A DNA stretch of 64,000 nt, taken from Escherichia coli (GTDB taxonomy: Bacteria > Pseudomonadota > Gammaproteobacteria > Enterobacterales > Enterobacteriaceae). Positions 9,799-32,099 of the stretch are shown here, piece after piece. The stretch lies in NCBI RefSeq assembly GCF_044324785.1, contig NZ_CP172129.1; one strand, given 5' to 3'. The notes under the pieces were generated by a model. That model did not search any database. It was given only the letters and a program-made list of their open reading frames with translations, and had not been told where the DNA came from. Position 1 is the first letter of the stretch. Each line of letters begins with the position of its first letter. The translations under genes were made by a program, and so were the position numbers.

Positions 9799-12000
9799 AT
9801 GATGATAAGCAAAAAGTATACGCTTTGGGCTCTCAACCCACTGCTTCTTACCATGATGGCGCCAGCAGTCGCTCAACAAACCGATGATGAAACGTTCGTG
9901 GTGTCTGCCAACCGCAGCAATCGCACCGTAGCGGAGATGGCGCAAACCACCTGGGTTATCGAAAACGCCGAACTGGAACAGCAGATTCAGGGCGGCAAAG
10001 AGCTTAAAGACGCACTGGCTCAGCTGATCCCTGGCCTTGACGTCAGCAGCCGGAGCCGCACCAACTACGGTATGAATGTGCGTGGCCGCCCGCTGGTCGT
10101 GCTGGTTGACGGCGTGCGTCTCAACTCTTCACGTACCGACAGCCGACAACTGGACTCTATAGATCCTTTTAATATCGACCATATTGAAGTGATCTCCGGT
10201 GCGACGTCCCTGTACGGCGGCGGCAGTACCGGTGGCCTGATCAACATCGTGACCAAAAAAGGCCAGCCGGAAACCATGATGGAGTTTGAGGCTGGCACCA
10301 AAAGTGGCTTTAGCAGCAGTAAAGATCACGATGAACGCATTGCCGGAGCTGTCTCCGGCGGAAATGAGCATATCTCCGGACGTCTTTCCGTGGCATATCA
10401 GAAATTTGGCGGCTGGTTTGACGGTAACGGCGATGCCACCTTGCTTGATAACACCCAGACCGGCCTGCAGTACTCCGATCGGCTGGACATCATGGGAACT
10501 GGTACGCTGAACATCGATGAATCCCGGCAGCTTCAGTTGATCACACAGTACTATAAAAGCCAGGGCGACGACGATTACGGGCTTAATCTCGGGAAAGGCT
10601 TCTCTGCCATCAGAGGGACCAGCACGCCATTCGTCAGTAACGGGCTGAATTCCGACCGTATTCCCGGCACTGAGCGGCATTTGATCAGCCTGCAGTACTC
10701 TGACAGCGCTTTTCTGGGACAGGAGCTGGTCGGTCAGGTTTACTACCGCGATGAGTCGTTGCGATTCTACCCGTTCCCGACGGTAAATGCGAACAAACAG
10801 GTGACGGCTTTCTCTTCGTCACAGCAGGACACCGACCAGTACGGCATGAAACTGACTCTGAACAGCAAACCGATGGACGGCTGGCAAATCACCTGGGGGC
10901 TGGATGCTGATCATGAGCGCTTTACCTCCAACCAGATGTTCTTCGACCTGGCTCAGGCAAGCGCTTCCGGAGGGCTGAACAACAAGAAGATTTACACCAC
11001 CGGGCGCTATCCGTCGTATGACATCACCAACCTGGCGGCCTTCCTGCAATCAGGCTATGACATCAATAATCTCTTTACCCTCAACGGTGGCGTACGCTAT
11101 CAGTACACTGAAAACAAGATTGATGATTTCATCGGCTACGCGCAGCAACGGCAGATTGCCGCCGGGAAGGCTACATCCGCCGACGCCATTCCTGGCGGCT
11201 CAGTCGATTACGACAACTTCCTGTTCAACGCCGGTCTGCTGATGCACATCACCGAACGCCAGCAGGCATGGCTCAACTTCTCCCAGGGCGTGGAGCTGCC
11301 GGACCCGGGTAAATACTATGGTCGCGGCATCTATGGTGCTGCAGTGAACGGCCATCTTCCTCTAACAAAGAGTGTGAACGTCAGCGACAGCAAGCTGGAA
11401 GGCGTGAAAGTCGATTCTTATGAGCTGGGCTGGCGCTTTACTGGCAATAATCTGCGTACCCAAATCGCGGCCTACTATTCGATTTCTGATAAGAGCGTGG
11501 TGGCGAATAAAGATCTGACCATCAGCGTGGTGGACGACAAACGCCGTATTTACGGCGTGGAAGGTGCGGTGGACTACCTGATTCCTGATACTGACTGGAG
11601 TACCGGAGTGAACTTCAACGTGCTGAAAACTGAGTCGAAAGTGAACGGTACCTGGCAGAAATACGATGTGAAGACAGCAAGCCCATCAAAAGCGACAGCC
11701 TACATTGGCTGGGCACCGGACCCGTGGAGTCTGCGCGTGCAGAGCACCACCTCCTTTGACGTGAGCGACGCGCAGGGCTACAAGGTCGATGGCTATACCA
11801 CCGCGGATCTGCTCGGCAGTTATCAGCTTCCGGTGGGTACACTCAGCTTCAGCATTGAAAACCTCTTCGACCGTGACTACACCACTGTCTGGGGGCAGCG
11901 TGCACCACTGTACTACAGCCCGGGTTACGGCCCAGCGTCACTGTACGACTACAAAGGCAGGGGCCGAACCTTTGGTCTGAACTACTCTGTGCTGTTCTGA
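9799..12000 (+). CDS. iutA: TonB-dependent ferric aerobactin receptor IutA
   Basis: 733-aa ORF with signal peptide, TonB box ETFVVSA and C-terminal aromatic residue typical of outer-membrane beta-barrels. Confidence 0.9.
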   Translation: MMISKKYTLWALNPLLLTMMAPAVAQQTDDETFVVSANRSNRTVAEMAQTTWVIENAELEQQIQGGKELKDALAQLIPGLDVSSRSRTNYGMNVRGRPLVVLVDGVRLNSSRTDSRQLDSIDPFNIDHIEVISGATSLYGGGSTGGLINIVTKKGQPETMMEFEAGTKSGFSSSKDHDERIAGAVSGGNEHISGRLSVAYQKFGGWFDGNGDATLLDNTQTGLQYSDRLDIMGTGTLNIDESRQLQLITQYYKSQGDDDYGLNLGKGFSAIRGTSTPFVSNGLNSDRIPGTERHLISLQYSDSAFLGQELVGQVYYRDESLRFYPFPTVNANKQVTAFSSSQQDTDQYGMKLTLNSKPMDGWQITWGLDADHERFTSNQMFFDLAQASASGGLNNKKIYTTGRYPSYDITNLAAFLQSGYDINNLFTLNGGVRYQYTENKIDDFIGYAQQRQIAAGKATSADAIPGGSVDYDNFLFNAGLLMHITERQQAWLNFSQGVELPDPGKYYGRGIYGAAVNGHLPLTKSVNVSDSKLEGVKVDSYELGWRFTGNNLRTQIAAYYSISDKSVVANKDLTISVVDDKRRIYGVEGAVDYLIPDTDWSTGVNFNVLKTESKVNGTWQKYDVKTASPSKATAYIGWAPDPWSLRVQSTTSFDVSDAQGYKVDGYTTADLLGSYQLPVGTLSFSIENLFDRDYTTVWGQRAPLYYSPGYGPASLYDYKGRGRTFGLNYSVLF

Positions 12001-12073
12001 CCGGTATTCCTTTACAACAAAGGTACGCTGATATCAACATGGCCGCTGACAGCCAAGTTGATATCATATAATA

Positions 12074-12134
12074 CACGACATAATCTGTAGTCAGGGAGGA
12101 TAGACTCTTTACTGACTACAGATTATGTCGTGTT
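12074..12134. repeat. Perfect 22-bp inverted repeat with 17-nt spacer downstream of iutA
   Basis: acacgacataatctgtagtcag ... ctgactacagattatgtcgtgt read directly from the sequence. Confidence 0.6.
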
Positions 12135-12524
12135 CCGTGCTCATTTCCTCAAAAAATACAAGAAAAGAATTAGTATTCTAACAAAAAGTGAAATAAATTG
12201 TATCAAACTCCCTCTTTTAATCCTGTTGAGTAAATCAGCTTTTGCAATAGGATTGAAAGAGTGTAAGTGGAATCTCTTCCGGATACTCGTTACCACCGTG
12301 GCTAGAATATCTACGGCTGCGGGCCAGTAATAGATTAAGTGATAACAGCTGTCTGGAAATGTAGGGGCGTATCCACTAATCATAATCATTGTGAGATAAA
12401 TATTACGGGGCATTTTATAATGAATAAAATATACTCTCTAAAATATTGTCATATTACCAATACCATGAAGGTGATGCTGCCAACTTACTGATTTAGTGTA
12501 TGATGGTGTTTTTGAGGTGCTCCA

Positions 12525-12800
12525 GTGGCTTCTGTTTCTATCAGCTGTCCCTCCTGTTCAGCTACTGACGGGGTGGTGCGTAACGGCAAAAGCACCGCCG
12601 GACATCAGCGCTATCTCTGCTCTCACTGCCGTAAAACATGGCAACTGCAGTTCACTTACACCGCTTCTCAACCCGGTACGCACCAGAAAATCATTGATAT
12701 GGCCATGAATGGCGTTGGATGCCGGGCAACTGCCCGCATTATGGGCGTTGGCCTCAACACGATTTTACGTCACTTAAAAAACTCAGGCCGCAGTCGGTAA
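12525..12800 (+). CDS. insA: IS1 InsA
   Basis: 91-aa [94 protein letters not shown]. Confidence 0.9.
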
Positions 12801-13512: not shown

Positions 13513-14688
13513 ATGTTCAGAATGAGACTCATGGAAACACTTAACCAGTGCATAAACGCTGGTCATGAAATGACGAAGGCTATCGCCATTGCACAGTTTA
13601 ATGATGACAGCCCGGAAGCGAGGAAAATCACCCGACGCTGGAGAATAGGTGAAGCAGCGGATTTAGTTGGAGTATCTTCTCAGGCTATCAGGGATGCCGA
13701 GAAAGCAGGCCGGCTACCGCACCCGGATATGGAAATACGAGGACGGGTTGAGCAACGTGTTGGTTATACAATTGAACAAATTAATCATATGCGTGACGTG
13801 TTTGGTACGAGACTACGACGTGCTGAAGACGTATTTCCGCCGGTGATTGGAGTTGCTGCTCATAAAGGGGGCGTTTACAAAACCTCTGTTTCTGTTCATC
13901 TTGCTCAGGATCTGGCTCTGAAGGGATTACGTGTTCTGCTCGTGGAAGGTAACGACCCCCAGGGAACAGCATCGATGTATCACGGCTGGGTGCCAGATCT
14001 TCATATTCATGCAGAGGATACTCTCCTTCCCTTCTATCTTGGGGAAAAGGACGATGTCACTTATGCAATAAAGCCTACTTGCTGGCCTGGGCTTGACATT
14101 ATTCCTTCCTGTTTGGCTCTGCACCGCATTGAAACTGAGCTAATGGGCAAATTTGATGAAGGTAAATTGCCCACCGATCCACACCTGATGCTCCGACTGG
14201 CCATTGAAACCGTCGCTCATGACTATGATGTCATTGTCATTGACAGCGCGCCTAACCTAGGTATCGGCACGATTAATGTTGTATGTGCTGCTGATGTGTT
14301 GATTGTCCCCACGCCTGCTGAGTTGTTCGACTACACTTCCGCTCTGCAGTTTTTCGATATGCTTCGTGATCTGCTCAAAAACGTAGATCTTAAAGGATTC
14401 GAGCCTGATGTACGTATTTTGCTTACCAAATACAGTAATAGTAATGGTTCTCAGTCCCCGTGGATGGAGGAGCAAATTCGGGACGCCTGGGGAAGCATGG
14501 TCCTAAAAAATGTTGTGCGTGAAACGGATGAAGTTGGTAAAGGTCAGATCCGGATGAGAACTGTTTTTGAACAGGCTATTGATCAACGCTCTTCAACAGG
14601 TGCCTGGAGAAATGCCCTTTCTATTTGGGAACCTGTCTGCAATGAAATTTTCGATCGTTTGATTAAACCACGCTGGGAGATTAGATAA
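13513..14688 (+). CDS. sopA: Partition ATPase SopA (ParA family)
   Basis: ORF contains [38 protein letters not shown] and Walker A KGGVYKTS; alternative start 9 nt downstream possible. Confidence 0.9.
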
Positions 14689-15659
14689 TGAAGCGTGCGC
14701 CTGTCATTCCAAAACATACGATTAAGACTCAACCGCTTGAAGATACTCCGTCATCGGCACCAGCTGCACCGATGGTGGATTCGTTAATTGCGCGCGTAGG
14801 AGCTATGGCTCGTGGCAATGCTATTACTTTGCCTGTATGTGGTAGGGACGTGAAATTTACCCTTGAGGTGCTCCGGGGAGATAGTGTTGAGAAGACCTCT
14901 CGGGTATGGTCAGGTAATGAACGTGACCAGGAACTGCTTACCGAAGACGCCCTGGATGATCTTATCCCTTCTTTTCTACTGACAGGTCAGCAGACACCAG
15001 CATTCGGTCGAAGAGTGTCTGGGGTCATAGAAATTGCCGATGGGAGCCGCCGTCGTAAAGCTGCTGCACTTACAGAAAGTGATTATCGAGTTCTGGTTGG
15101 TGAGCTGGATGATGAGCAGATGGCTGCATTGTCCAGATTGGGTAACGATTATAGGCCAACAAGTGCTTATGAACGTGGTCAGCGTTATGCAAGCCGATTG
15201 CAGAATGAATTTGCTGGAAATATTTCTGCGCTGGCTGATGCAGAAAATATTTCACGTAAGATTATTACCCGCTGTATCAACACAGCTAAACTGCCTAAAT
15301 CAGTTGTTGCTCTTTTTTCTCATCCCGGTGAACTATCTGCCCGGTCAGGTGATGCACTTCAAAGAGCTTTTACAGATAAAGAAGAATTACTTAAGCAGCA
15401 GGCATCTAACCTTCACGAGCAGAAAAAAGCAGGAGTGATATTTGAAGCTGAAGAAGTCATCACTCTTTTAACGTCTGTGCTTAAAACGTCATCTGCCTCA
15501 AGAACTAGCTTAAGCTCACGACATCAGTTTGCTCCTGGAGCGACAGTGTTGTACAAGGGCGATAAAATGGTGTTAAACCTAGATAGATCTCGTATTCCAA
15601 CTGAGTGTATAGAGAGAATTGAAGCCATTCTTAAGGAACTTGAAAAAGCGGCACTTTGA
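14688..15659 (+). CDS. sopB: Partition centromere-binding protein SopB (ParB family)
   Basis: 323-aa ORF overlapping sopA stop, followed by sopC repeats. Confidence 0.9.
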
Positions 15660-15750
15660 TGCGGCACGTTTTAGTCTACATTTATCTGTCTTTACTTAAT
15701 TTCCTTTAGCACAGGCTAGAAAACATAACTAACTGGCCTGAATATTATAT

Positions 15751-16094
15751 CTGGGACCACGGTCCCAGTTGTATTGTCGGTCTGATAATCAGTCTGGGAC
15801 CACGGTCCCACTCATATTGTCGGTCTGATAATCAGTCTGGGACCACGGTCCCACTCATATTGTTGGTCTGCTAATCAGTCTGGGACCACGGTCCCACTCA
15901 TATTGTCGGTCTGCTAATCAGTCTGGGACCACGGTCCCACTCATATTGTTGGTCTGATTATCGGTCTGGGACCACGGTCCCACTCATATTGTTAGTCTGA
16001 TAATCAGTCTGGGACCGCGGTCCCACTCGTATTGTTGGTCTGCTAATCAGTCTGGGACCACGGTCTCACTTGTATTGTCGATCTGATTATCAGC
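15751..16094. repeat. sopC: sopC centromere: 8 tandem 43-bp repeats
   Basis: Eight contiguous 43-bp units of ctgggaccacggtcccactcatattgtcggtctgataatcagt with minor variants, each containing the 7-bp inverted repeat TGGGACC/GGTCCCA. Confidence 0.9.
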
Positions 16095-16705
16095 GTGAGA
16101 CTACGATTCCATTAATGCCTGCCAGTGAGTGTGTGGAACATATCTTGGCCAGTGGCTTGGTCTGTGATGTGCTGCGTATACCGGGTGAACCGCCCCGCCG
16201 CTTGTTTGACCGCTATATTCTGCGGGAGTTTTCTTGGAGGCACGGGATGAAATCCGCAGCATGGCGGATGCCCTGGCAAAAATCCGGAAATGATGACGAT
16301 GGCGGGGAAAATCCCCGCCTTTTTCCTGCCGGTCCCCGGACAGAGCACAAAGGAAGTCGCCGCCGGCTCCGCTTTACCCGGCCATGCGGAGCATGGCCTT
16401 GTGGGGGTTCAGTTATGTGGACGTCGAGTCGTGTGCGGGCTGTGCCGTGCCTCCATCTTAGCCGGGCTGGCGTTGATGCAAGCAACTGTCTTAATGGGAG
16501 GCGGTTATCTGAAAAAAGTACGGGATAATATTATGGAATCGCCCATCTCAAGCAAAAAACTGACTCGCTTCGATACTACGCTGACAGGCTGTTTTGAGCG
16601 AGATATCTCTCGTGTCGGGCATCGACATTTTAAATGATTCTAAATAATATGAGCAGGGTCAGTCTTATTAAAGATTAAAACACCGGATAACAAGTTTTAT
16701 TGATT

Positions 16706-17281
16706 ATGGATGAAGAGAAAACTCGTGCTGAAGTGGCACACATAGAATTTATTTCATATGGTACGTCTCGAATTTTTGATAGGCGTATGAGATCCTTAGA
16801 CTGGAAGCGTAAGGTTGTCACCTTCCTTGGGGTCTTTGTTCCACTGATGATAGGTTGTGCAGTTTTATCATTCGGACTTGAAGCTCCATTTCTGCCGCTT
16901 TGCATCACAATTGCCGGTGTGGCAAGTATCATGCAATTGGGGTTCTCGCTGTGGTCTTTGGTTTCCGGATGGGATCGCTCATATAGTGATTGCATGGCTT
17001 CCGTTAAGGAAAATACAGCCATTTATAACCTAGCTGGTAGTGTTCGCAAGAAAATAGGTAAGCTTGACGAAGCCAAATTGGAAATTTTGATAGACGATTT
17101 GACGGAAAAATTTGAGCGAAGGGAGCAGGAAGACTTAACTTTGTGTGTGAGTGATAAAGAACTTCGTTATGCAAACCGTATGTCCTGTTTCTACTTCAAA
17201 AAAAAATGCCATATTTGTAATGTCGTTCCCCTAACTTTGAAACCGGGAAAATGTGTTTGTGATGGTTGTGGGAAATTTTAA
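16706..17281 (+). CDS. Hypothetical membrane protein: two predicted TM helices, charged helical region, C-terminal Cys cluster (CxxC...CxCxxC)
   Basis: ORF 16700..17281; AT-rich island; hydrophobic stretches VVTFLGVFVPLMIGCAVLSFGL and LPLCITIAGVASIMQLGFSLWSLV; C-terminal KKKCHICNVVPLTLKPGKCVCDGCGKF; no recalled homolog. Confidence 0.5.
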   Translation: MDEEKTRAEVAHIEFISYGTSRIFDRRMRSLDWKRKVVTFLGVFVPLMIGCAVLSFGLEAPFLPLCITIAGVASIMQLGFSLWSLVSGWDRSYSDCMASVKENTAIYNLAGSVRKKIGKLDEAKLEILIDDLTEKFERREQEDLTLCVSDKELRYANRMSCFYFKKKCHICNVVPLTLKPGKCVCDGCGKF

Positions 17282-17293
17282 CAAGGAGAACAT

Positions 17294-17506
17294 ATGAGTA
17301 GTGCAAAAATTCTTAACGCTTACTTCGAGGCTTCTGAAGAAGATCGAAAGGAGTTCCTACGGGTTCTTAGTCATTTTTATAAGGATAACCGAAGAGTACC
17401 TCTGCAAGAGGGCATGGAGAGCTTTGCCGTCAATGAAAGCATCCGTAAATCGCAGTCAATTAACTTTGCCCCTATGCAAGGTGGGTGTCCACTCTGCGGC
17501 AAGTAA
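17294..17506 (+). CDS. Hypothetical small protein (70 aa) with C-terminal CPLCGK motif, likely co-transcribed with the upstream gene
   Basis: Strong Shine-Dalgarno AAGGAG 6-8 nt upstream of ATG at 17294; 12-bp gap after upstream gene; hairpin terminator follows. Confidence 0.5.
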   Translation: MSSAKILNAYFEASEEDRKEFLRVLSHFYKDNRRVPLQEGMESFAVNESIRKSQSINFAPMQGGCPLCGK

Positions 17507-17510
17507 CGAC

Positions 17511-17545
17511 CAAAGCCGCTTGACTAGCGGCTTGATAGATTTCTT
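17511..17545 (+). terminator. Putative intrinsic terminator after the two-gene cassette
   Basis: aagccgcttgactagcggctt hairpin followed by T-rich tract gatagatttctttatatt. Confidence 0.4.
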
Positions 17546-17559
17546 TATATTGTAACTAG

Positions 17560-19000
<1,441 letters not shown>

Positions 19001-19139
19001 ACCCTCCAACTCCCGCCAGCCGTGTGTGTCAGGCTGCGGCTTCCCTTGCGCCCTTTGCATCCCCGCCTTATCGCCCGGCTTTTATGGAGGCACGGCACAG
19101 CCCGGTGTCGCGGAATATGTGAACAACGGAGGAAATCCC

Positions 19140-19565
19140 ATGCAGTATGCGAAACCTGTCACTCTGAATGTTGAAGAGTGCGACCGTCTGTCTTTTCTGC
19201 CTTACCTGTTTGGCAACGATTTTCTGTATGCCGAAGCATATGTGTACGCGCTGGCGCAAAAAATGATGCCGGAATATCAGGGAGGCTTCTGGCACTTCAT
19301 CCGCCTGCCGGACGGTGGCGGTTACATGATGCCGGATGGCGACCGTTTTCATCTGGTTAACGGTGAAAACTGGTTTGACCGCACGGTCAGTGCCGATGCC
19401 GCAGGCATCATTCTGACTTCCCTTGTGATTAACCGCCAGTTGTGGCTGTACCACGACAGCGGTAACGCAGGGCTGACACACCTGTACCGGATGCGTGATG
19501 CGCAGTTGTGGAGCCACATCGAATTTCACCCCGAATGTAACGCGATTTACGCGGCGCTGGACTGA
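19140..19565 (+). CDS. klcA: Antirestriction protein KlcA/ArdB family
   Basis: 141-aa protein (start trimmed from ORF 18960..19565 to MQYAKPV behind GGAGGA); motifs [53 protein letters not shown] parallel RK2 KlcA. Confidence 0.8.
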
Positions 19566-19654
19566 TTAACGGACGGGGCGGCAATGCCGCCCCTGTAAAG
19601 GAGACGAGAACATGTACTGTTAAAGAAATTATCCGCGATGTACTGGATACAGAC

Positions 19655-20026
19655 GTGCCGGACAGTGAATGCGTTTTTGCCGTGGTGCTGACCCGTGGGA
19701 ATGTGCGCCATATGGCTCAGGACTGGAACCTGTCAGACGATGAGCTGGAAACCGTCATGCAGCGGCTGGACGATGCTTTTGTATATGGCGCATGTGACAG
19801 AGTTGTTTCCGATATTGTCAATGAACTGATGGAGGAAAAGCGCGTAAACCGCCTTGTAACAGTCCCTGCGGTGCTGCTGGAAAAAGTGATGGTGATGGCT
19901 GGTAGTGAAATTTATCGCCTCCATGCTGTCGGGAGCGAGAACGGGGGCGACGGTGACGCATTTGTCAGGGAAGAACGTGAGATTATGCGGGTGATGCGTC
20001 AGGCGCTGGACGGGGAGAACGGGTAA
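19655..20026 (+). CDS. Hypothetical leading-region protein (123 aa, acidic)
   Basis: ORF from track; position between klcA and first Frpo-like repeat; start codon uncertain (GTG, frame open upstream). Confidence 0.45.
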   Translation: MPDSECVFAVVLTRGNVRHMAQDWNLSDDELETVMQRLDDAFVYGACDRVVSDIVNELMEEKRVNRLVTVPAVLLEKVMVMAGSEIYRLHAVGSENGGDGDAFVREEREIMRVMRQALDGENG

Positions 20027-20208
20027 TGAATATCAGCACGGAAACCCGCGAAATTCTGCGTAATTACAAAACCGTGATTAATGCGCGGCGTCGTGAGATG
20101 GGGCAGAAACCGCTCACCACCGCGCAGATTGTTGATGAAATCTGCGATTTTGTGACGAATCAGCAGGCGGTTTTCCTCGGTGGTCACTATATCCTTCAGG
20201 GCAGCTGA
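20026..20208 (+). CDS. Hypothetical small leading-region protein (60 aa)
   Basis: ORF overlapping upstream stop (ATGA), suggests translational coupling. Confidence 0.4.
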   Translation: MNISTETREILRNYKTVINARRREMGQKPLTTAQIVDEICDFVTNQQAVFLGGHYILQGS

Positions 20209-20442
20209 AACAGGTGATACAGGGCAGGCGGTGGAGGCCGCCTGTCAGCCCGCGCGAACCCCCCTGGCAGGCTGACGCCTGCCGGAAGGGAAGCGGGCCA
20301 CGCTGACGCGTCGCCCGTTACCCTTCCCGTTAGTGATGTGTCCGGAATGTTTTTTCTGATGTTATTTTTCTGTGGTTACCGTGTTTGTTATTGTTCTTCT
20401 TCTTTTTCCTCTTCCTCTTCTTTCCGTTCCTCTCCTGTTTAT

Positions 20443-20970
20443 GGCTTTTCCGGGCGTCCCCCTGGCGGGGCGGGCTGTCGTGAACGGAGCCAGCGGAGCT
20501 GTCTCCGCCCTGGCGGGCTTCCATCCCTGACGCGAAACCATGGCTTGCAGCGACCGTTCCGGTCGCGCCGCCTCTGTCGCGCCGTGGCCTGCGCTCCCGG
20601 CATCCCGGCAAAAGGCGCCGGAATGTAAGGAGCAACGCCGTTTCGCAAACCGCGCTTCACGTCGTTGCGGCGGGTCCCTGCTCATTGCCTGCCAAGTGCC
20701 ACACACCCGTATGAGTCCCTGTCGCCGGGGGCTGAGACAGCCACAACCTGCCGCACTGACTGTCCAGGGTAAATGAACAGCCCACAAAATTTTTTACCCA
20801 GAACCCGGTAAAAAATTTTGCGTTCTGCCCAGGACAGGTGCGTCAGGCCGTGGCAGTGATGCCCCTTGCGGCGAAGGTTCTCAAACGGGTGAAGTTCATA
20901 CCACAGGGAATACAGCAGCAGGTTCCCGCGAAACGTCAAAACCGCGGCTCCCGAAACTCAACGGGTGATG
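20443..20970 (+). repeat. Frpo/ssi-like repeat copy 1 (putative single-stranded DNA promoter), preceded by CT-rich tract
   Basis: About 530 bp nearly identical to copies at 23700-24230 and 29091-29630; begins ccttttccgggcgtccccctggcggggcgggctgtcgtgaacggagccagcggagc. Confidence 0.6.
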
Positions 20971-21201
20971 TTCTTTAAAAATCAGGATTTATTTCAGGCT
21001 CCGGCAATACGCATTTATTTGTTCTGTCAGTCATCCGGCTGGCAGGTAATGAGAACGCAGGAACAGAAGGAGGAAAACACCGGAAAGCGTCAGATGCAGA
21101 TATGAAAAAAGCAGGTCAGGGACCTGCTTAATCCACGCCGTAGAAATCGCCGCAATCGATTTTCACGGCTTCACTAACCTGTGTCATAAGGAGTTTCATT
21201 T

Positions 21202-21432
21202 ATGACAGTAAGTATTGTTTCACCTTCCGCAGCGGCTGTAAAGCCCCGCCGTCATCCCCGTTTCAGACGCGAAGACATCCCCGCGCCGGAAATTGACCCC
21301 GTGCTGAAAGCATTCGGGCGACACATAGCCCGGAGTTTTCACCGGGGACGTGGTGTACACATCCCCGCCATGAAAAACACGGCTTTCGGGCAGGTGCTCC
21401 GCACACTTGAACTGAAACGCGCTTTTAACTGA
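21202..21432 (+). CDS. Hypothetical small basic protein (76 aa), first gene downstream of Frpo-like copy 1
   Basis: ORF with AAGGAG-like SD (cataaggagtttcatttATG). Confidence 0.5.
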   Translation: MTVSIVSPSAAAVKPRRHPRFRREDIPAPEIDPVLKAFGRHIARSFHRGRGVHIPAMKNTAFGQVLRTLELKRAFN

Positions 21433-21483
21433 TGAGGTGAGCCGCCCCGCGAGGGGCGGCAACAGACGGAAGGAGAACATTTT

Positions 21484-22845
21484 ATGACATTAGCAGCAAT
21501 CACCATGACCGCCCCAGAAGCCGCCAGCCCTGTGCAGATGTACCGCGCGACCTACTCACCGGATGACAACAAACTGCGCCTGTATGCTGCGTCACGTCTT
21601 GACCCGGAGACGTATAAAAAAGTGCATGATGCCGGTTTTCGCTGGGCACCAAAACAGGCGCTGTTTGTGGCTCCAGCCTGGACACCGGGCCGGGAAGACG
21701 TGCTCCTCTCACTTGCCGGAGAGATTGAGGATGAAGACAGCACGCTCGCTGAACGTCAGGAAGCACGGGCGGAGCGGTTTACCGGATACAGCGGAAAGCG
21801 GGCCAGTGAATCCGCACAGGCACTTGATGAAGTGGAAAGACTGGCCGCGATGATCCCGCCCGGTCAGCCCATTCTTGTGGGGCATCACAGCGAACGCCGC
21901 GCCCGTCGTGATGCGCAGCGTATTGAAAACGGCATGAAACGTGCCGTGATGCTCGTTGAACGTGCGGAATACTGGGAAGAGCGGGCGCGGTCGGCACTGC
22001 TTCACGCGAAGTATAAAGAACGTCCGGACGTTCGCTGGCGTCGTATCAAAAAAATCGAAGCTGATTTGCGCAAGGCTGAAAAGACCATCGCGCAGTCGCA
22101 GAAATATCTGACGATATGGCGGGCTGAATCGCTGGATCTGAATATGGCAAAACTCATCAGTAGTCATGACCGTATCAGTGCCTGTTTCCCGCTGGATACG
22201 TATCCGCGCCCGGCAGAAAAAAGCCAGTATGAAGGAAGTCGATCGTTATGGTCGGCCCTGGATGATGACATCATCACCACGGAGCAGGCCCGCGAAATTG
22301 CGATCCGCTGTCATAAACGGCAGATTCAGCATCAGCAACGCTGGGTTAACCACTATCAGAACCGCCTGATCTATGAGCGTGCCATGCTGGACGAAAGCGG
22401 CGGCGTGGTTACCCGGACACAGGATTTTGAGCCGGGCGGACAGGTTTTCAGCCGGGGCGAGTGGCTGACCATCATCCGCGTGAACAAAAGCAACGGGACG
22501 GTGAGTTCAGTCACAACGCCGAATTACAGTTTTCTCGGGTACAGTGGCACGATGAAAGTGACGCCCGATCGCATTACGGACTACAAAGCACCATCGGCAG
22601 AAGAGGCTGCCGTCGCCAGTCAGGCCGCTAAGCGTCCGCCTGTTGTCAACTATCCGGGAGAAGGTTTCCGGGAAATGACAAAGGCACAGTGGGCTGCCCT
22701 GCCCCGGGACTGTAAGGCCGTGCGCAGTGTGGCAGAGGCAGAAGACCACGGGGCATATCGTTACCGCCGCACAATGGACAATAATTTCCGCCTGGTGAAT
22801 GTGTATATCACCGACATGAAGATTACGGAAATCCCACAGAAATAA
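21484..22845 (+). CDS. Conserved leading-region protein (453 aa), possibly DUF3560-like
   Basis: ORF from track with SD ggaaggagaacattttATG; family name is from memory and unverified. Confidence 0.55.
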   Translation: MTLAAITMTAPEAASPVQMYRATYSPDDNKLRLYAASRLDPETYKKVHDAGFRWAPKQALFVAPAWTPGREDVLLSLAGEIEDEDSTLAERQEARAERFTGYSGKRASESAQALDEVERLAAMIPPGQPILVGHHSERRARRDAQRIENGMKRAVMLVERAEYWEERARSALLHAKYKERPDVRWRRIKKIEADLRKAEKTIAQSQKYLTIWRAESLDLNMAKLISSHDRISACFPLDTYPRPAEKSQYEGSRSLWSALDDDIITTEQAREIAIRCHKRQIQHQQRWVNHYQNRLIYERAMLDESGGVVTRTQDFEPGGQVFSRGEWLTIIRVNKSNGTVSSVTTPNYSFLGYSGTMKVTPDRITDYKAPSAEEAAVASQAAKRPPVVNYPGEGFREMTKAQWAALPRDCKAVRSVAEAEDHGAYRYRRTMDNNFRLVNVYITDMKITEIPQK

Positions 22846-22892
22846 GGTATATCCTCCCGGGAAAATCCCCGGGGGATGACGGAGATAATGAC

Positions 22893-23456
22893 ATGTACAG
22901 TCAGTTAAGAGAACGTATCCGGCTGATGCGCGCAAGGCTGGATAACGCCGCGCCGGTTGCTGAAATCCGGGCTGAATCTCAGCTTTTTGTGACTCCTGCC
23001 CCGGTCTGTGATCGCCTGGTGACGCTGGCGGGGATCAGCAACCGTGATCACATTCTGGAACCCTCTGCCGGCACCGGGGCCATACTGCGGGCGATTAGGG
23101 ATACCGCGCCGGTAGCCATGTGTGATGCGGTGGAAATCAACAGCGGGCTGGTCCGGTATCTGCGGGAAAATTTTAACGGTGTCAGGGTTCAGTGTGGCGA
23201 CTTCATGGAATGGCAGCCGGTGCAGTATTACAGCCGGGTTATCATGAATCCGCCGTTCAGCCACGGGCAGGATATCCGGCATATCCTGCGGGCCTTTTCC
23301 CTGTTGCGTCCGGGTGGCGTGCTGGTCGCCGTCTGTCTCAACGGGCCACGCCAGCAGGAGAAGCTGTTACCGTTTTCTGACGTCCGCGAGGAGCTGCCGC
23401 GCGGCACATTTGCTTATACCGATGTCCCGACGATGATTATTCGTCTGCGTGCCTGA
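22893..23456 (+). CDS. Orphan DNA adenine-N6 methyltransferase
   Basis: SAM-binding motif I EPSAGTGAIL and catalytic motif IV NPPF present; no adjacent restriction endonuclease gene. Confidence 0.7.
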   Translation: MYSQLRERIRLMRARLDNAAPVAEIRAESQLFVTPAPVCDRLVTLAGISNRDHILEPSAGTGAILRAIRDTAPVAMCDAVEINSGLVRYLRENFNGVRVQCGDFMEWQPVQYYSRVIMNPPFSHGQDIRHILRAFSLLRPGGVLVAVCLNGPRQQEKLLPFSDVREELPRGTFAYTDVPTMIIRLRA

Positions 23457-23699
23457 AGACTCCGGGCAGGCGGGAGGATAAATGCTCGTCTGCCCGCGCC
23501 GGGAAAAGACCGCGCGCCGGTGGCGCTGAAAGGGGCCGCGCTCACGCGCCGCCCCTTTCATTACGCGGAAATTCTGCTGTGGGCTTCTGTCTTTTCAGAT
23601 CTGTCATTTGTCTGTTACTGATGATGTTCCTGCTACTGCTACTGTTTTTCTTTTTTCTGCTGCTCTGATTACTGTCTGTCTTGTTCTTCTTCTGCCTGT

Positions 23700-24230
23700 G
23701 CCTTTTCCGGGCGTCCCCCTGGCGGGGCGGGCTGTCGTGAACGGAGCCAGCGGAGCTGTCTCCGCCCTGGCGGGCTTCCATCCCTGACGCAAAACCCCTG
23801 GCTTGCAGCGACTGTTCCGGTCGCGCGCCTCTGTCGCGCCGTGGCCTGCGCTCCTGGCATCCCGGCAAAAGGCCGCCGGGATGTAAGGCGCAACGCCGTT
23901 TCGCAAACCGCGCTTCACGTCGTTGCGGCGGGTCCCTGCCCGTTGTTATGTCCGGTGCCATTCACCTGTTTAAGCCCCTGTCGCCGGGGGCAAAGACAGC
24001 CACAACCGTCTCCGCCAGTCCAGGGGTGAAATGCACATCCCGCAAAACTTTTTGCCCAAAAGCAGGCAAAAACTTTTGCGGTCTGCCCCCGGACAGTCGT
24101 TTCCTGCCGTGGCAGTGATGCCCCTTGCGGCGAAGGTTTTCAAAAAGGTGATGGTGAATACCGGAGGGAACAAAAGGCAGGTCCCCGCAAAACGTCAAAA
24201 CCGCGGCTCCCGAAACTCAAAAGATGATGG
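23700..24230 (+). repeat. Frpo/ssi-like repeat copy 2 (putative single-stranded DNA promoter), preceded by CT-rich tract
   Basis: Same 5' ~300 bp as copies 1 and 3, divergent central segment; directly upstream of ssb. Confidence 0.6.
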
Positions 24231-24261
24231 GGCTGAAAACATCAACAGAAGGAGACACATC

Positions 24262-25090
<829 letters not shown>

Positions 25091-25153
25091 GAGAGGTGCC
25101 GGACGGGAATGCGTCCGGCAGACATACAACCATCCCGGTCAAAGGAGAAATAT

Positions 25154-27112
25154 ATGTCGGTTACAGAGTCTAAGACAAAAACGGAGCGTAAATCCAGCCG
25201 TAAACCGTCAAAAGAGCAGGAGACTGCCCTGTCTGCCCTGCTGGCGCAGACGGCGGAAGTGAGCGTGCCGCTGGCCTCACTGATTAAATCACCACTGAAT
25301 GTGCGCACGGTGCCGTATTCTGCGGAGTCTGTCAGCGAACTGGCGGAGTCCATTAAGGGCGTTGGCCTGTTGCAGAATCTGGTCGTGCATACCCTGCCTG
25401 GTGACCGTTACGGTGTCGCCGCAGGTGGTCGCCGACTGGCTGCACTCAACATGCTGGCAGAGCGTGGCATCATTCCGGCTGACTGGCCTGTCCGTGTGAA
25501 GGTCATTCCGCAGGAGCTGGCGACGGCGGCATCAATGACTGAAAACGGTCATCGTCGGGATATGCACCCTGCTGAACAGATTGCCGGATTCCGCGCAATG
25601 GCGCAGGAAGGCAAAACACCTGCACAAATCGGTGATTTGCTGGGCTATTCACCCCGCTATGTCCAGCGAATGCTGAAACTGGCTGACCTTGCGCCTGTCA
25701 TCCTCGATGCGCTGGCAGAAGACCGCATCACTACCGAACACTGTCAGGCGCTGGCGCTGGAGAACGACACCGCGCGTCAGGTACAGGTGTTTGAAGCCGC
25801 CTGTCAGTCGGGATGGGGCGGAAAACCGGATGTGCGGGTTATCCGCAATCTGATTACGGAAAGTGAAGTGGCGGTGGCGGGGAACAGTAAATTCCGCTTC
25901 GTGGGGGCTGATGCTTTCTCACCTGACGAACTGCGTACTGATTTGTTCAGCGATGACGGGGACGGTTATGTCGACCGCGTGGCGCTCGATGCTGCCCTGC
26001 TGGAAAAACTCCAGGCTGTCGCTGAACACCTTCGGGAAGCCGAAGGCTGGGAATGGTGCGCCGGACGCATGGAGCCTGTCGGTGAGTGCCGTGAGGATGC
26101 CGGAACATACCGCTGTTTGCCGGAGCCGGACGCGGTGCTGACGGAGGCGGAAGAAGAACGCCTGAACGAACTGATGACGCGTTACGACGCGCTGGAAAAC
26201 CAGTGTGAGGAATCCGACCTGCTGGAAGCAGAAATGAAGCTGATGCGCTGCATGGCGAAGGTCAGAGCGTGGACGCCGGAGATGCGTACCGGAAGCGGTG
26301 TGGTGGTGTCCTGGCGTTACGGTAATGTGTGTGTCCAGCGTGGTGTGCAGTTGCGCAGCGAGGATGACGCGGCTGACGACGCTGACCGCACGGAACAGGT
26401 GCAGGAGAAAGCATCAGTGGAGGAAATCAGTCTGCCACTGCTGACGAAAATGTCTTCCGAACGCACGCTGGCAGTCCAGGCGGCACTCATGCAGCAACCG
26501 GACAAATCCCTGGCACTGCTGGCATGGACGCTCTGCCTGAATGTGTTTGGCAGCGGAGCGTACAGTAAACCAGCACAAATCAGCCTGGAATGTAAACATT
26601 ATTCGCTGACCAGCGATGCGCCGTCAGGGAAGGAAGGTGCCGCGTTCATGGCGATGATGGCAGAAAAAGCCCGTCTTGCGGCCCTGTTACCGGAGGGATG
26701 GTCACGGGACATGACGACGTTCCTGTCACTCAGTCAGGAGGTGCTGTTATCCCTGCTCAGTTTCTGCACCGCGTGCAGCATCCACGGCGTTCAGACCCGC
26801 GAGTGTGGTCACACGTCACGCAGCCCGCTGGACACGCTGGAGAGCGCCATCGGTTTTCACATGCGTGACTGGTGGCAGCCGACAAAAGCAAACTTCTTCG
26901 GACACCTGAAAAAGCCGCAGATTATCGCAGCTCTGAATGATGCCGGACTGTCCGGTGCCGCACGGGATGCAGAGAAGATGAAGAAAGGTGATGCGGCTGA
27001 ACATGCAGAGCACCATATGAAAGACAACCGCTGGGTGCCTGGCTGGATGTGTGCACCACATCCACAGACGGATACCACTGAACGCACCGATAACCTGGCT
27101 GATGCCGCCTGA
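25154..27112 (+). CDS. ParB-like nuclease domain protein of the leading region
   Basis: ORF 25109..27112, start set at MSVTESK behind AAAGGAG; N-terminal ParB/Srx-like region (GLLQNLVVHTLPGDRYGVAAGGRRLAALNML). Confidence 0.65.
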   Translation: MSVTESKTKTERKSSRKPSKEQETALSALLAQTAEVSVPLASLIKSPLNVRTVPYSAESVSELAESIKGVGLLQNLVVHTLPGDRYGVAAGGRRLAALNMLAERGIIPADWPVRVKVIPQELATAASMTENGHRRDMHPAEQIAGFRAMAQEGKTPAQIGDLLGYSPRYVQRMLKLADLAPVILDALAEDRITTEHCQALALENDTARQVQVFEAACQSGWGGKPDVRVIRNLITESEVAVAGNSKFRFVGADAFSPDELRTDLFSDDGDGYVDRVALDAALLEKLQAVAEHLREAEGWEWCAGRMEPVGECREDAGTYRCLPEPDAVLTEAEEERLNELMTRYDALENQCEESDLLEAEMKLMRCMAKVRAWTPEMRTGSGVVVSWRYGNVCVQRGVQLRSEDDAADDADRTEQVQEKASVEEISLPLLTKMSSERTLAVQAALMQQPDKSLALLAWTLCLNVFGSGAYSKPAQISLECKHYSLTSDAPSGKEGAAFMAMMAEKARLAALLPEGWSRDMTTFLSLSQEVLLSLLSFCTACSIHGVQTRECGHTSRSPLDTLESAIGFHMRDWWQPTKANFFGHLKKPQIIAALNDAGLSGAARDAEKMKKGDAAEHAEHHMKDNRWVPGWMCAPHPQTDTTERTDNLADAA

Positions 27113-27163
27113 TGAACAACCACACCGCCCCGCCGGAGACGGGGCAGCAGCAAGGGAGATACC

Positions 27164-27601
27164 GTGATGAAAACTGAACTGACCCTGAATGTATTACAGA
27201 CCATGAACGCACAGGAATATGAAGATATCAGGGCTGCCGGAAGTGATGAACGCCGTGAGCTGACACACGCCGTGATGCGGGAACTGGATGCGCCGGACAA
27301 CTGGACGATGAATGGCGAGTACGGCAGCGAGTTCGGCGGCTTTTTCCCCGTCCAGGTCCGTTTCACGCCTGCCCACGAACGTTTTCACCTGGCGTTATGT
27401 TCACCGGGTGATGTCTCCCAGGTCTGGGTGCTGGTTCTGGTGAATGCCGGTGGTGAGCCGTTTGCGGTGGTTCAGGTACAGCGGCGGTTTGCACCGGAAG
27501 CAGTCAGCCATTCACTGGCACTGGCGGCGTCACTGGATGCGCAGGGGTACAGCGTTAACGACATCATCCATATCCTGATGGCGGAAGGAGGTCAGGTATG
27601 A
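27164..27601 (+). CDS. psiB: Plasmid SOS inhibition protein PsiB
   Basis: [53 protein letters not shown]... recalled as PsiB; followed by overlapping psiA. Confidence 0.85.
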
Positions 27602-28317
27602 ACGCACGTTCACGGGCACTGGTTCCCCTCAGCACAGAGCAACAGGCCGCATGGCGGGCGGTGGCGGAGACGGAAAAACGCCGCCATCAGGGAAACACGC
27701 TGGCGGAATATCCGTATGCGGGAGCATTTTTCCGCTGTCTGAACGGAAGCCGCCGGATTTCGCTGTCTGACCTGCGATTTTTCATGCCGTCCCTGACCGC
27801 AGAAGAACTGCACGGCAACCGTCTTCAGTGGCTGTGTGCCATCGATGTGCTGATTGAAACACAGGGCGAGGTCTGCCTCCTTCCCCTTCCCGGCGATGCA
27901 GCAGAACGCTTGTTCCCGTCGGTGCGGTTTCGTGTCAGGGAACGCAGTCGCCATAAATCCGCGCTGGTCATGCAGAAGTACAGCCGCCAGCAAGCGAGGG
28001 AGGCAGAGCAGAAAGCCCGTGCGTACCAGGTGCTGGTTGCTCAGGCTGAAATCGAACTGGCATTTCATTCACCGGAAACAGTCGGAAGCTGGCATGCACG
28101 CTGGAGTGACCGGGTGGCAGAGCATGACCTGGAACCCCTGTTCTGGCAGTGGGGCGAGCGTTTTCCGTCACTGGCCGGAATGGAACGCTGGCAGTGGCAG
28201 GATATGCCATTCTGGCAGGTTATCGCGGAAGCCAGTCTGGCAGCCAGAGAGGCCGGTCATGCTGTCCGTGAGATGGAGCGGTGGATGGTGCCGAACAAAC
28301 TCCGGGAGGCAGCGTGA
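27598..28317 (+). CDS. psiA: Plasmid SOS inhibition protein PsiA
   Basis: 239-aa ORF overlapping psiB stop (ATGA), canonical psiB-psiA arrangement. Confidence 0.85.
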
Positions 28318-28469
28318 TGCGGCAATAATCACACGGATTACCCGTGAACTGGTTGAACGACCAGATTATTTTCAGGGAAAGTGAGTGTGGTCAGCGTGCA
28401 GGGATATGAGCTATGATGTGCCCGGCGCTTGAGGCTTTCTGCCTCATGACGTGAAGGTGGTTTGTTACC

Positions 28470-28545
28470 GTGTTGTGTGGCAGAAGGCAGAAAGCCCCGT
28501 AGTTAATTTTTCATTAACCCACGAGGCCCCCTGTATGTCTGATCA
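28470..28545 (-). ncRNA. sok: Sok/FlmB antisense RNA (position approximate)
   Basis: Inferred from the conserved hok/sok architecture (antisense to the mok leader); not directly delimited in sequence. Confidence 0.3.
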
Positions 28546-28750
28546 ACAACAGTATGGCCTCTTACCGTGCTTAATGCAAGGAGGAGTAAACCATGAAACT
28601 ACCGGGAAACGCCCTTATCTGGTGCGTATTAATCGTGTGCTGCACGTTGTTAATATTCACACTCCTGACCCGGAATCGTCTGTGCGAAGTCCGGCTGAAG
28701 GACGGATACAGGGAGGTTACGGCAAGTTTGGCTTACGAATCCAGCGGTAA
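28535..28750 (+). CDS. mok: Mok/FlmC (modulation of killing) reading frame overlapping hok
   Basis: ORF 28451..28750 overlaps hok in a different frame and ends 4 nt before the hok stop; start set at internal MSDQQQ. Confidence 0.5.
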
Positions 28751-28754
28751 GTAG
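28593..28754 (+). CDS. hok: Hok/FlmA family post-segregational killing toxin (53 aa)
   Basis: Translates [55 protein letters not shown] aaggagg upstream. Confidence 0.85.
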
Positions 28755-29090
28755 CAACCTGGAGGCGGGCGCAGGCCCGCCTTTTCAGGGCTGATGCTGG
28801 TCTGACTGCACTGAAGCGCCTTTATAAAGGGGCTGCTGGTTCGCCGGTGGCCCCTTTCTCCTTGCTGGCATTGTGCGGGCATGAACAACCAGACTGCCAG
28901 GAAGGCCGTTTCCCTCCGGGAACGGGGATGAACGTGCGCCTGCGGCGCCCGTTCTTTTCCCCCGCCTTCTCTGTTTATGACCTGTCAGAAATCACATCAC
29001 CTTCCCTTTGATTATTCTCTTTTTCCTCCTGTTCTGACTCTGATTACTGCTGCCCTGATTATTGTCTGTTTTGTTGTTCTCCTGCTTATG

Positions 29091-29630
29091 CCTTTTCCGG
29101 GCGTCCCCCTGGCGGGGCGGGCTGTCGTGAACGGAGCCAGCGGAGCTGTCTCCGCCCTGGCGGGCTTCCATCCCTGACGCGAAACCCCGGGCTTGCAGCG
29201 ACCGTTCCGGTCGCGCCGCCTCTGTCGCGCCGTGGCCTGCGCTCCCGGCATCCCGGCAAAAGGCCGCCGGGATGTAAGGGGCAACGCCGTTTCGCAAACC
29301 GCGCTTCACGTCGTTGCGGCGGGTTCCTGCCCGTTGTTGTGTCCGGTGCCATTCACCTGTTTAAGCCCCTGTCGCCGGGAGCTGATACAGCCACAACCTG
29401 CCGCACTGACTGTCCAGGGTAAATGAACAGCCCACAAAATTTTTTACCCAAAACCCGGTAAAAAATTTTGCGTTCTGCCCAGGACAGGTGCGTCAGGCCG
29501 TGGCAGTGATGCCCCTTGCGGCGAAGGTTCTCAAACAGGTGATGGTGAATACCGGAGGGAACAAACGGCAGGTCCCCGCAAAACGTCAAAACCGCGGCTC
29601 CCGAAACTCAACAGATGATGGGGGCTGAAA
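29091..29630 (+). repeat. Frpo/ssi-like repeat copy 3 (putative single-stranded DNA promoter), preceded by CT-rich tract
   Basis: Near-identical to copy 1 over its full length; directly upstream of ORF 29653. Confidence 0.6.
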
Positions 29631-29652
29631 ACCAGAGAGAGGAGAAAGCAGG

Positions 29653-29940
29653 ATGAGTACCCGAAATATCCACGTTAACATCGCGTCGTACACGCTTCTT
29701 GTTGCCGGGAAGAAAAAATACACCGGGGAAGAGTGGGACGTCCTGGAATTCAGCAGCCTGACTGAGCTGAAAAAATATCGCAAAAGCCACCCGGAAAAGA
29801 TGGCCTTCAGCTATAGCTATGCGCTCAGCCGGGGTGTGGATACGCAGTTCCGCCATATCAACATTGCGGAAGCCGATCACTTCAAACAGTTCCTGCGTCA
29901 GATTAAGCGTACCGGCCTCGATATCCGGGCTATCTGCTGA
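29653..29940 (+). CDS. Hypothetical leading-region protein (95 aa)
   Basis: ORF from track immediately downstream of Frpo-like copy 3. Confidence 0.5.
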   Translation: MSTRNIHVNIASYTLLVAGKKKYTGEEWDVLEFSSLTELKKYRKSHPEKMAFSYSYALSRGVDTQFRHINIAEADHFKQFLRQIKRTGLDIRAIC

Positions 29941-30058
29941 CCGGATGTGATGAATATCCCTCCTGATTGTTGCAATCTTGTTAATGGAGATCGGGAGGGA
30001 TGATATTAAGCGGAAAAATTTTTTATTAAATTTATTCTTTCATAAAGGAGTAGCTGTT

Positions 30059-31699: not shown

Positions 31700-32099
31700 T
31701 GACTTTATCCGTAAATAATTTAACTCACTCCACAAAAAGGCTCAACAGGTTGGTGGTTCTCACCACCAAAAGCACCACACCCCACGCAAAAACAAGTTTT
31801 TGCTGATTTTTCTTTATAAATAGAGTGTTATGAAAAATTAGTTTCTCTTACTCTCTTTATGATATTTAAAAAAGCGGTGTCGGCGCGGCTACAACAACGC
31901 GCCGACACCGTTTTGTAGGGGTGGTACTGACTATTTTTATAAAAAACATTATTTTATATTAGGGGGGGCTGCTAGCGGCGCGGTGTGTTTTTTTATAGGA
32001 TACCGCTAGGGGCGCTGCTAGCGGTGCGTCCCTGTTTGCATTATGAATTTTAGTGTTTCGAAATTAACTTTATTTTATGTTCAAAAAAGGTAATCTCTA
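31700..32099. other. oriT: Origin of transfer oriT with nic region and TraM binding sites
   Basis: caccacaccccacgcaaaaacaag is the complement of the F-type nic sequence GCGTGGGGTGTGGTG (nick near 31776 on minus strand); downstream palindromes gcggtgtcggcgcgg...ccgacaccg and ataccgctaggggcgctgctagcggtgcg resemble R100-type TraM sites. Confidence 0.75.

Follow-up and report, generated by a model that had tools for sequence, protein, structure and literature searches.

Transcription from single-stranded DNA (ssDNA) promoters in early transconjugants, which ends when the transferred strand is converted to double-stranded DNA, has been reported for the plasmids pESBL and F (Wen et al., 2025, NAR, PMC12672017). 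According to that report, klcA and ardA of the IncI1 plasmid pESBL are each preceded by a class 2 ssDNA promoter, whose start was mapped by 5' rapid amplification of cDNA ends, and F has conserved promoters of classes 2 and 3 in front of its KlcA and M.EcoGIX homologs. A 2026 preprint (10.64898/2026.01.09.698686) describes the F promoter ssp2 as sitting between yffB and yfgB and driving yfgB (ArdB, 93% identical to R64 ArdB), and it reports that synthesis of the complementary strand stalls at the base of the ssp2 stem until the structure is resolved by UvrD, so that early expression lasts longer. By its account, ssp2 is the only one of the ssDNA promoters that acts as a replication roadblock, and by driving an anti-restriction gene and delaying leading-region conversion it aids the establishment of F in foreign hosts. 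Here we analyze a 64,000-nt stretch of Escherichia coli DNA (contig NZ_CP172129.1 of assembly GCF_044324785.1; hereafter the window), an F-like plasmid in which a GC-rich segment of 546 bp (16095-16640) follows the partition site sopC. From its sequence, an element that begins in this segment is an ssp2 homolog, that is, a class 2 ssDNA promoter, split by the insertion sequence (IS) ISEc32. The segment itself very probably consists of the tail of a deleted gene, the terminator of that gene, and one half of ssp2, and it ends in the edge of the ISEc32 insertion that splits the promoter.

We assigned the window element to ssp2 because it is homologous to the hairpins of Frpo' 4, of the klcA and ardA regions of ColIb-P9, and of F yfgB. 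Frpo' 4, Frpo* 1, and Frpo* 3 are computational candidates from Samuel et al. (2024, Nature, PMC11541004, Supplementary Table 2; insect-gut metagenome element). Frpo' 4 aligns arm for arm with the window element and also in the core CCCTTGCAT-N-GCCCGGCTAAGATGGAG-CACGGC; Frpo* 1 and Frpo* 3 have the same architecture as the window element, with compensatory changes in the stem. These candidates were grouped with Frpo despite having no sequence similarity to class 1 Frpo/ssiD. With ColIb-P9 taken as an IncI1 proxy for pESBL, its klcA- and ardA-upstream intervals were 96% and 94% identical to the element of pJJ1886_5, in which the promoter is intact. The likeness to F ssp2 includes sequence (the window halves are 87-92% identical to F), site (the interval that separates the 258-aa gene from the ArdB/KlcA gene), strand, and a predicted stem-loop whose stem, contiguous in intact relatives, would hold the -35 and -10 boxes. 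Unlike ssp2, the window copy is cut beside the -35 box by the 2,427-bp ISEc32, and its upstream gene has been reduced to a 171-bp frameshifted stub that abuts sopC. The class 1 promoters, Frpo/ssiD and ssi1-3 of ColIb-P9 (Masai and Arai, 1997), work on the common principle that a hairpin of the transferred strand rebuilds a duplex promoter, and they too are ssDNA-only promoters of the leading region upstream of establishment genes. They differ from the window element in having no detectable sequence similarity to it and in preceding ssb, psiB, and ygeA rather than anti-restriction genes and methylases. The promoter family has thus already been published (2024-2026), and the segment is explained by known kinds of features.

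The left half of the promoter occupies 16326-16482, the 3' part on the transferred strand, and the right half, which comprises the apical region, the template arm, and the leader, occupies 18910-19139; both are on the minus strand. In a nucleotide search against F-like plasmids, which an earlier note on this DNA had proposed as a check, 16123-16482 was collinear with 4001-4361 of the pJJ1886_5 locus (L002; 89% identity) and with 10171-10527 of the F locus (L055; 87% identity). On the other side of the insertion, 18910-19699 was collinear with pJJ1886_5 4359-5153 (94% identity between 18910-19139 and 4359-4588), and 18910-20961 with F 10525-12601 (92%). In pJJ1886_5, pNY9_3, F, and ColIb-P9, the intact element fills the space that separates the 258-aa gene from the antirestriction gene. 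Folded as ssDNA, the minus strand of the intact pJJ1886_5 element reached -104 kcal/mol (z = -4.67), and none of 100 shuffled sequences was as stable. In the window, an inverted repeat of 32 nt (16436-16467 and 19073-19104) is 91% complementary, and a run of 21 bp between the arms is without mismatch. When the interrupted strand of 2,861 nt is folded, its minimum-energy structure pairs 45 bp, joining 19046-19104 to 16436-16485; this pairing across the IS is the prediction of an energy model that ignores coating by single-stranded DNA-binding protein and folding kinetics.

Because the window is oriented as F (it is collinear with F from sopA, via the leading region, to traM, traJ, and traY), its minus strand is the transferred strand and hence templates the leading-region genes, in agreement with Samuel et al., who state that the T-strand can serve for transcription of these genes (PMC11541004). 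In uninterrupted relatives, the transferred strand would enter the recipient during conjugation and fold into a stem-loop of ~250-300 nt. The arm equivalent to 16436-16482 (CCCTTGCATCAACGCCAGCCCGGCTAAGATGGAGGCACGGCACAGCCCG as read on the minus strand) would serve as the non-template strand and supply a -35-like TTGCAT (16481 down to 16476) and a -10-like TAAGAT (16460 down to 16455), three bases of which are mismatched in the stem (A.A, A.A, and G.A), and the arm at 19046-19104 would pair with it as the template. Host RNA polymerase would then start near 19092 and transcribe the antirestriction gene at 19140-19565 before the complementary strand is made. This gene, on the plus strand, is of the ArdB/KlcA type (a yfgB/yubI homolog; PF03230, E = 1.8e-26; annotated "antirestriction protein" by the Prokaryotic Genome Annotation Pipeline, PGAP). 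The template arm ends 35 nt ahead of it, and a leader of ~45-48 nt with a GGAGG Shine-Dalgarno motif precedes its ATG at 19140. We found no double-stranded, conventional sigma-70 promoter in 18700-19200. The complements of the two boxes are ~19 nt apart on the template arm, compared with 15 nt for the boxes on the non-template arm (16455-16481 and 19055-19084), because the stem contains an asymmetric internal loop. Among 52 family members, the first T of TTG stands opposite G in 34 and opposite A in 17.

Promoter and roadblock activity are taken from the literature on F and pESBL; our own analysis contributes the homology of the two halves, their splitting by the insertion, the fold with its covariation, and the fixed association with anti-restriction genes. 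The -35 and -10 hexamers were placed by reading the sequence, and we infer the positions of the boxes and of the start in the window copy, with the right arm as template, as well as any function that the split copy retains. Some observations weigh against the assignment of a promoter here. The boxes on the non-template arm are separated by 15 nt, where standard promoters have 16-18 nt; TTGCAT agrees with TTGACA at only three of six positions; and the window hairpin is interrupted by 2.4 kb, with its arms brought together across the insertion in a modeled fold.

A blastn search of plasmids with the element returned at least 5,000 records, but all of the matches among those listed were 90-100% identical and offered no diversity. 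For diversity we therefore scanned genome contigs with a degenerate pattern built from the conserved arm, in which CTTG, GCCCGGCTA, T, and CACGG were fixed; conservation of the pattern-fixed columns is consequently built in, and the partner arm was left unconstrained. The scan found 60 instances in 48 loci, nearly all in Enterobacterales. We aligned 51 distinct intact instances with the pJJ1886_5 element (alignment A2; 52 relatives, Enterobacterales). Across 26 stem pairs, 97.2% of the cells were standard-paired, and compensatory changes occurred at eight of the pairs (95 cells); none of 500 shuffles reached these values for pairing or compensation, and sliding the partner arm by 1-3 columns lowered pairing to 32-46%. 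Throughout the family, the first downstream gene begins 40-50 nt past the template arm. By Pfam scans of representatives, this gene encodes an N6/N4 DNA methylase in 16 of 43 cases, ArdA in 13, an ArdB/KlcA-type protein in 10, and DUF1281 in three, which together account for 42 of the 43; the remaining case is an unassigned 84-aa open reading frame (ORF).

We then placed the rest of the segment. The earlier note had described a GC-rich stretch of ~0.5 kb after sopC, and this description was accurate: GC content is 0.59-0.62 at 16200-16500, compared with 0.36-0.50 in the flanks, and the stretch directly follows sopA (13513-14688), sopB (14688-15659), and the sopC array with its flank (15707-16122), which contains at least seven direct repeats of 43 bp ending at ~16110. 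Homology to the sopC regions of F and pJJ1886_5 ends at 16090-16124. All 546 bp are 100% identical in p1658/97 and hundreds of other plasmids, whereas the part that is shared widely is 16123-16482 only; because this part is conserved at ~88-91% identity in at least 5,000 plasmid records, the GC-rich segment is not a chance feature. It is a composite rather than a single unit, and it is not a gene. Its first 28 bp (16095-16122) are sopC flank, a deletion junction lies at ~16123, and the insertion boundary falls at 16482/16483. Relative to pJJ1886_5, ~3.7 kb are missing at the deletion junction, comprising a hypothetical gene, a DNA methylase gene, a DUF1380 gene, and most of the 258-aa gene; in the F locus, 6355-10171 has no counterpart in the window.

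What remains of the 258-aa gene is its 3' end, ~57 codons (171 bp) at 16123-16293 on the plus strand, without the 5' end. By BLASTP, the relic matches residues 193-238 of the pJJ1886_5 protein at 29 of 46 positions (63%), and in the DNA alignment a 1-nt deletion shifts the frame ahead of the shared stop codon (16291-16293). In a copy that has integrated into a chromosome (locus L068), PGAP/RefSeq treats the relic as a pseudogene, with the label "frameshifted; incomplete; missing N-terminus". The 258-aa gene, which in plasmids of the F-like and IncI1 types lies upstream of the antirestriction gene, is apparently yffB of F. A terminator scan identified an intrinsic-terminator-like hairpin on the plus strand at 16301-16325 (GGCGGGGAAAATCCCCGCC followed by T5; hairpin 16301-16319, T run to 16325), which is kept in pJJ1886_5 and ColIb-P9 and belongs to the upstream 258-aa gene. 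The earlier note had suggested that the segment is either the remnant of a degraded gene or non-coding DNA with structure, and each explanation holds for a part of it. The first is correct for 16123-16293, a frameshifted and 5'-truncated relic; the second applies to 16326-16482 as one arm of a hairpin, not as a self-contained structure, as the partner arm lies 2.6 kb away. Neither describes 16483-16640, where the last 158 bp are the end of the inserted IS110-family unit.

Could the segment nevertheless encode a real small protein? The three overlapping ORFs listed in the earlier note are present at exactly the coordinates given there: 16070-16528 (plus strand, 152 aa), which starts in sopC, crosses the gene relic, and then continues out of frame; 16213-16485 (minus strand, 90 aa), which is antisense to the whole arrangement; and 16290-16637 (plus strand, 115 aa), which PGAP annotates as a coding sequence (CDS), hypothetical protein WP_001350917.1, in most plasmids with this arrangement. 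That annotation is the argument for a protein. However, the 115-aa ORF straddles the insertion junction at 16482/16483: codons 1-64 read through the terminator and the arm of the promoter, and the final 51 lie in the end of the IS. Because it spans this junction, it is a chimeric artefact. Furthermore, no CDS is annotated in the homologous interval of the insertion-free pJJ1886_5, pNY9_3, F, and ColIb-P9; profile scans assigned no Pfam or NCBIfam family to any of the three ORFs or to the 258-aa relative; and the conserved constraint on 16436-16482 is pairing with the distant arm. The earlier note, in which none of the ORFs looked like a real protein, was right on this point. It had named a clear protein-level homolog for one of the frames as the finding that would speak against it, and the sole such similarity in the segment is the weak one of the 46-aa relic of the 258-aa C-terminus, followed by a frameshift, which is not a gene. 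A small protein encoded by this segment, whether by the 115-aa ORF or by the other two, is thus very improbable, and the hypothetical protein at 16290-16637 in hundreds of plasmids is an annotation artefact that should be replaced by a pseudogene fragment, an ssDNA-promoter arm, and an IS boundary. The proposal that the element is a diverged copy of class 1 Frpo/ssiD is equally hard to sustain. It would account for the shared region, strand logic, and similar size, and in plasmid pEC14-2 window position 16482 is joined directly to the second Frpo repeat at 23880. That junction, however, is supported by 8 nt of microhomology only, Wen et al. describe the two classes as unrelated in sequence (PMC12672017), and when the restored element was compared by sensitive blastn with each of the window's three Frpo-type repeats, nothing significant emerged (best E 0.08-0.24). 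A third proposal sees the hairpin less as a promoter than as a site of priming or single-strand initiation, or as a barrier to complementary-strand replication, and draws on class 1 Frpo transcripts that prime DNA synthesis (Masai and Arai, 1997, as described in citing papers) and on the report that ssp2 is a structural roadblock independent of transcription (10.64898/2026.01.09.698686). Against it, a mapped start and ssp2-dependent yfgB function have been published (PMC12672017; 10.64898/2026.01.09.698686); as the same studies report these, the roles add to rather than exclude each other. The constant 40-50 nt to the start codons of anti-restriction genes also fits a promoter. We therefore regard a role mainly in priming or as a barrier as unlikely, and retain the assignment to ssp2.

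The state of the split promoter is a closer question. ISEc32 is flanked by ...GCGTATC on one side and CTTGCAT... on the other, and because it thus lies just outside the -35 box, both hexamers and their complements are intact in the window; the loop has grown from ~160 nt to ~2.6 kb. One reading is that the segment is debris only, and that the insertion destroyed ssp2 function in this plasmid lineage. Consistent with this, the template arm now enters the recipient 2.6 kb ahead of its partner across the enlarged loop, and the leading region is already eroded, having lost the methylase operon farther upstream together with the greater part of the 258-aa gene. On the other hand, the intact boxes, the 21 bp of perfect complementarity, and the 45 bp still paired in the predicted fold speak for a structure that could form. 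Among 5,426 complete E. coli genomes, 325 have the arrangement with an identity of at least 99%, which fits tolerance of the insertion and fits simple hitch-hiking as well. Loss of function is a real possibility, which we place a little below an even chance, and we regard "still partly functional" and "inactivated" as roughly comparable descriptions of this copy. The ~6% of complete E. coli genomes in which ssp2 is split by an IS provide a natural test of whether a kilobase-scale loop is tolerated.

The ISEc32 unit (IS110 family) occupies 16483-18909 on the minus strand (2,427 bp) and is inserted at a CTT core just upstream of the -35 box, with its right end in the segment (16483-16640, 158 bp). 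Comparison with pJJ1886_5, pNY9_3, and F shows a clean insertion, with the junctions GTATC^CTTATAT... and ...ACAGTTG^CTTGCAT (the caret marks the junction). The unit contains an IS110-family DEDD recombinase, the ISEc32 transposase (17767-18738, minus strand; PF01548, E = 3.7e-19; PF02371, E = 1e-15), which scored 198.7 bits against NF033542, "IS110 family RNA-guided transposase" (cut-off 140). Its left non-coding end of 171 nt (18739-18909, minus strand) is a predicted bridge RNA with the target guides GCGAACC and AUGCAAG and the donor guide ACAGUUG; Rfam gave no match in 18739-18909. The whole 2,427-bp unit was found in 364 plasmid records. ISEc32 is present in its 325 E. coli genomes at a median of one copy; of 341 ISEc32 places, 338 are plasmid-borne and three chromosomal, and the chromosomal copy that we inspected proved to be this plasmid segment after integration. 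ISEc32 in E. coli thus looks like a single inherited insertion, and because the E. coli copies give no independent sites, the evidence for site specificity comes from related elements in other genera and in metagenomes.

In different genera, class 2 hairpins that have diverged in sequence contain related IS110 elements at the identical position, just 5' of CTTG in the -35 box. An element of 3,237 bp in Enterobacter cancerogenus (L039, 8881-12117; recombinase 65% identical) has the junctions ...AGCTTCC^ and ^CTTGTTTGCG, a metagenomic element of 3,379 bp (L064) has ...AAGCTTCC^ and ^CTTGCAGGCG, and an incomplete metagenomic element (L065) has ...GCGAACC^. In two Pantoea loci (L009, near 9447, and L010, near 7839), we found the right end only (...ACAGTTG^CTTGTTTGCG); we looked for the IS left ends in both, and they are absent, so that the right-end junctions alone are informative there. 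The empty site is visible in the uninterrupted relatives L013 and L045.

The left ends of these elements align, and within each the segment GCGAACC, AGCUUCC, or AAGCUUCC is the sense of the element's own left target flank, whereas the segment AUGCAAG, AAACAAG, or CGGCAAG is complementary to CTTGCAT, CTTGTTT, or CTTGCAG (the last at 6/7 positions). The guides thus fit their targets as follows: GCGAACC and AUGCAAG fit GCG(A/T)ACC^CTTGCAT, AGCUUCC and AAACAAG fit AGCTTCC^CTTGTTT, and AAGCUUCC and CGGCAAG fit AAGCTTCC^CTTGCAG at 6/7 positions. A consensus fold of five left ends has a stem (columns 40-57/101-117) with three compensatory pairs that encloses both target guides, and a second loop of the predicted bridge RNA bears ACAGUUG, identical to the right-end terminus. 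Because the two RNA segments co-vary with each element's own target flanks, these comparisons indicate that the elements are probably targeted to class 2 promoters by their bridge RNAs.

The predicted guide layout and strand rule agree with those of the IS621 bridge RNAs (Durrant et al., 2024, Nature, PMC11208160). ISEc32 resembles IS621/IS110 in its DEDD recombinase, its 171-nt left end with two internal loops, one segment that is the sense of the left flank and another complementary to the right flank including the core, and the absence of inverted repeats, with a short core (CTT) repeated at both junctions. Unlike IS621, which targets repetitive extragenic palindromic elements, ISEc32 would have a plasmid ssDNA-promoter hairpin as its target, as judged here from the sequence alone, and its clade consists of units of 2.4-3.4 kb with passengers between the recombinase and the right end. 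We found no published link between IS110 elements or bridge RNAs and plasmid leading regions, and ISEc32 is mentioned in passing in surveys; the association of IS110 elements with class 2 promoters is apparently undescribed and seems new. Through these recurring, guide-matched insertions, conjugative plasmids would provide a documented case of a target that a bridge-RNA recombinase uses in nature.

Taken jointly, the data make it moderately likely that a cargo-bearing IS110 clade (ISEc32 and its relatives in Enterobacter, Pantoea, and metagenomes) is programmed for the -35 flank of class 2 promoters as a natural landing site on plasmids, that the split ssp2 may still fire and stall conversion with 2.4-3.4 kb in its loop, because the insertion point keeps the boxes and the stem intact, and that a deletion in pEC14-2, marked by CTTACATC, is a by-product of the recombinase. 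The value of the segment lies in the annotation correction, the split ssp2, and the guide-matched association between IS110 elements and class 2 promoters.

In pEC14-2 (L004, 3381-3388), the left promoter arm is joined directly to the second Frpo-type repeat, and the IS and ~5 kb of the leading region are gone; this join is present in two plasmids. The break falls exactly at the IS core (AAG/CTT). The second Frpo-type repeat at the break, read on the transferred strand, is CTTACATC, one base off the IS left end CTTATATC, which suggests that deletions of this type may arise by aberrant excision by the IS recombinase.

The passengers of these IS110 units lie on the strand opposite the recombinase, which is the orientation of the leading-region genes. 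In ISEc32 they are a mobilome CxxCx(11)CxxC protein gene annotated by PGAP (16700-17281, plus strand; TIGR04402, E = 8.7e-55), preceded by a sigma-70-like site (16622-16650), and an ORF of 70 aa (17294-17506, plus strand) that had no Pfam or NCBIfam match. The passengers of the Enterobacter element (10056-12112) are a methyl-accepting-chemotaxis-like ORF, so judged from its sequence alone, and a 111-aa ORF.

Enterobacterial leading-region sequence also turned up in assemblies labeled as Gram-positive (L006 and L007, Streptomyces morookaense; L026, a Collinsella metagenome-assembled genome; and L051, a Lachnospiraceae metagenome-assembled genome), one of which carries an ISEc32 junction. Contamination or mis-binning is the most likely explanation for these cases.

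An Rfam scan of 15000-30000 (E <= 1) gave nothing in the segment, and its only matches were sok, AS-pc01, and one chance microRNA hit. Those above the gathering score were AS-pc01, antisense to pHK01_035 (21106-21207, minus strand), and sok, the antitoxin RNA in a module of the hok/sok type (28423-28595, plus strand). A hairpin upstream of the DUF1281/methylase operon is found at 6702 in the F locus (minus strand) and at 31763 in the ColIb-P9 locus (L054). This hairpin, presumably the class 3 promoter published as ssp3, has the arm motif CTTGCAT-N-GCCCGGTTAACGT-N-CACGG in common with class 2, although its published description sets it apart from all other hairpins; the window lacks this promoter and its operon altogether. 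The window contains three class 1 Frpo/ssiD-type repeats of ~620 nt each (20362-20985, 23619-24244, and 29009-29635), which precede a 76-aa ORF and a DUF3560 gene, ssb, and ygeA/ygeB-type genes, respectively, whereas F has been described as carrying two.

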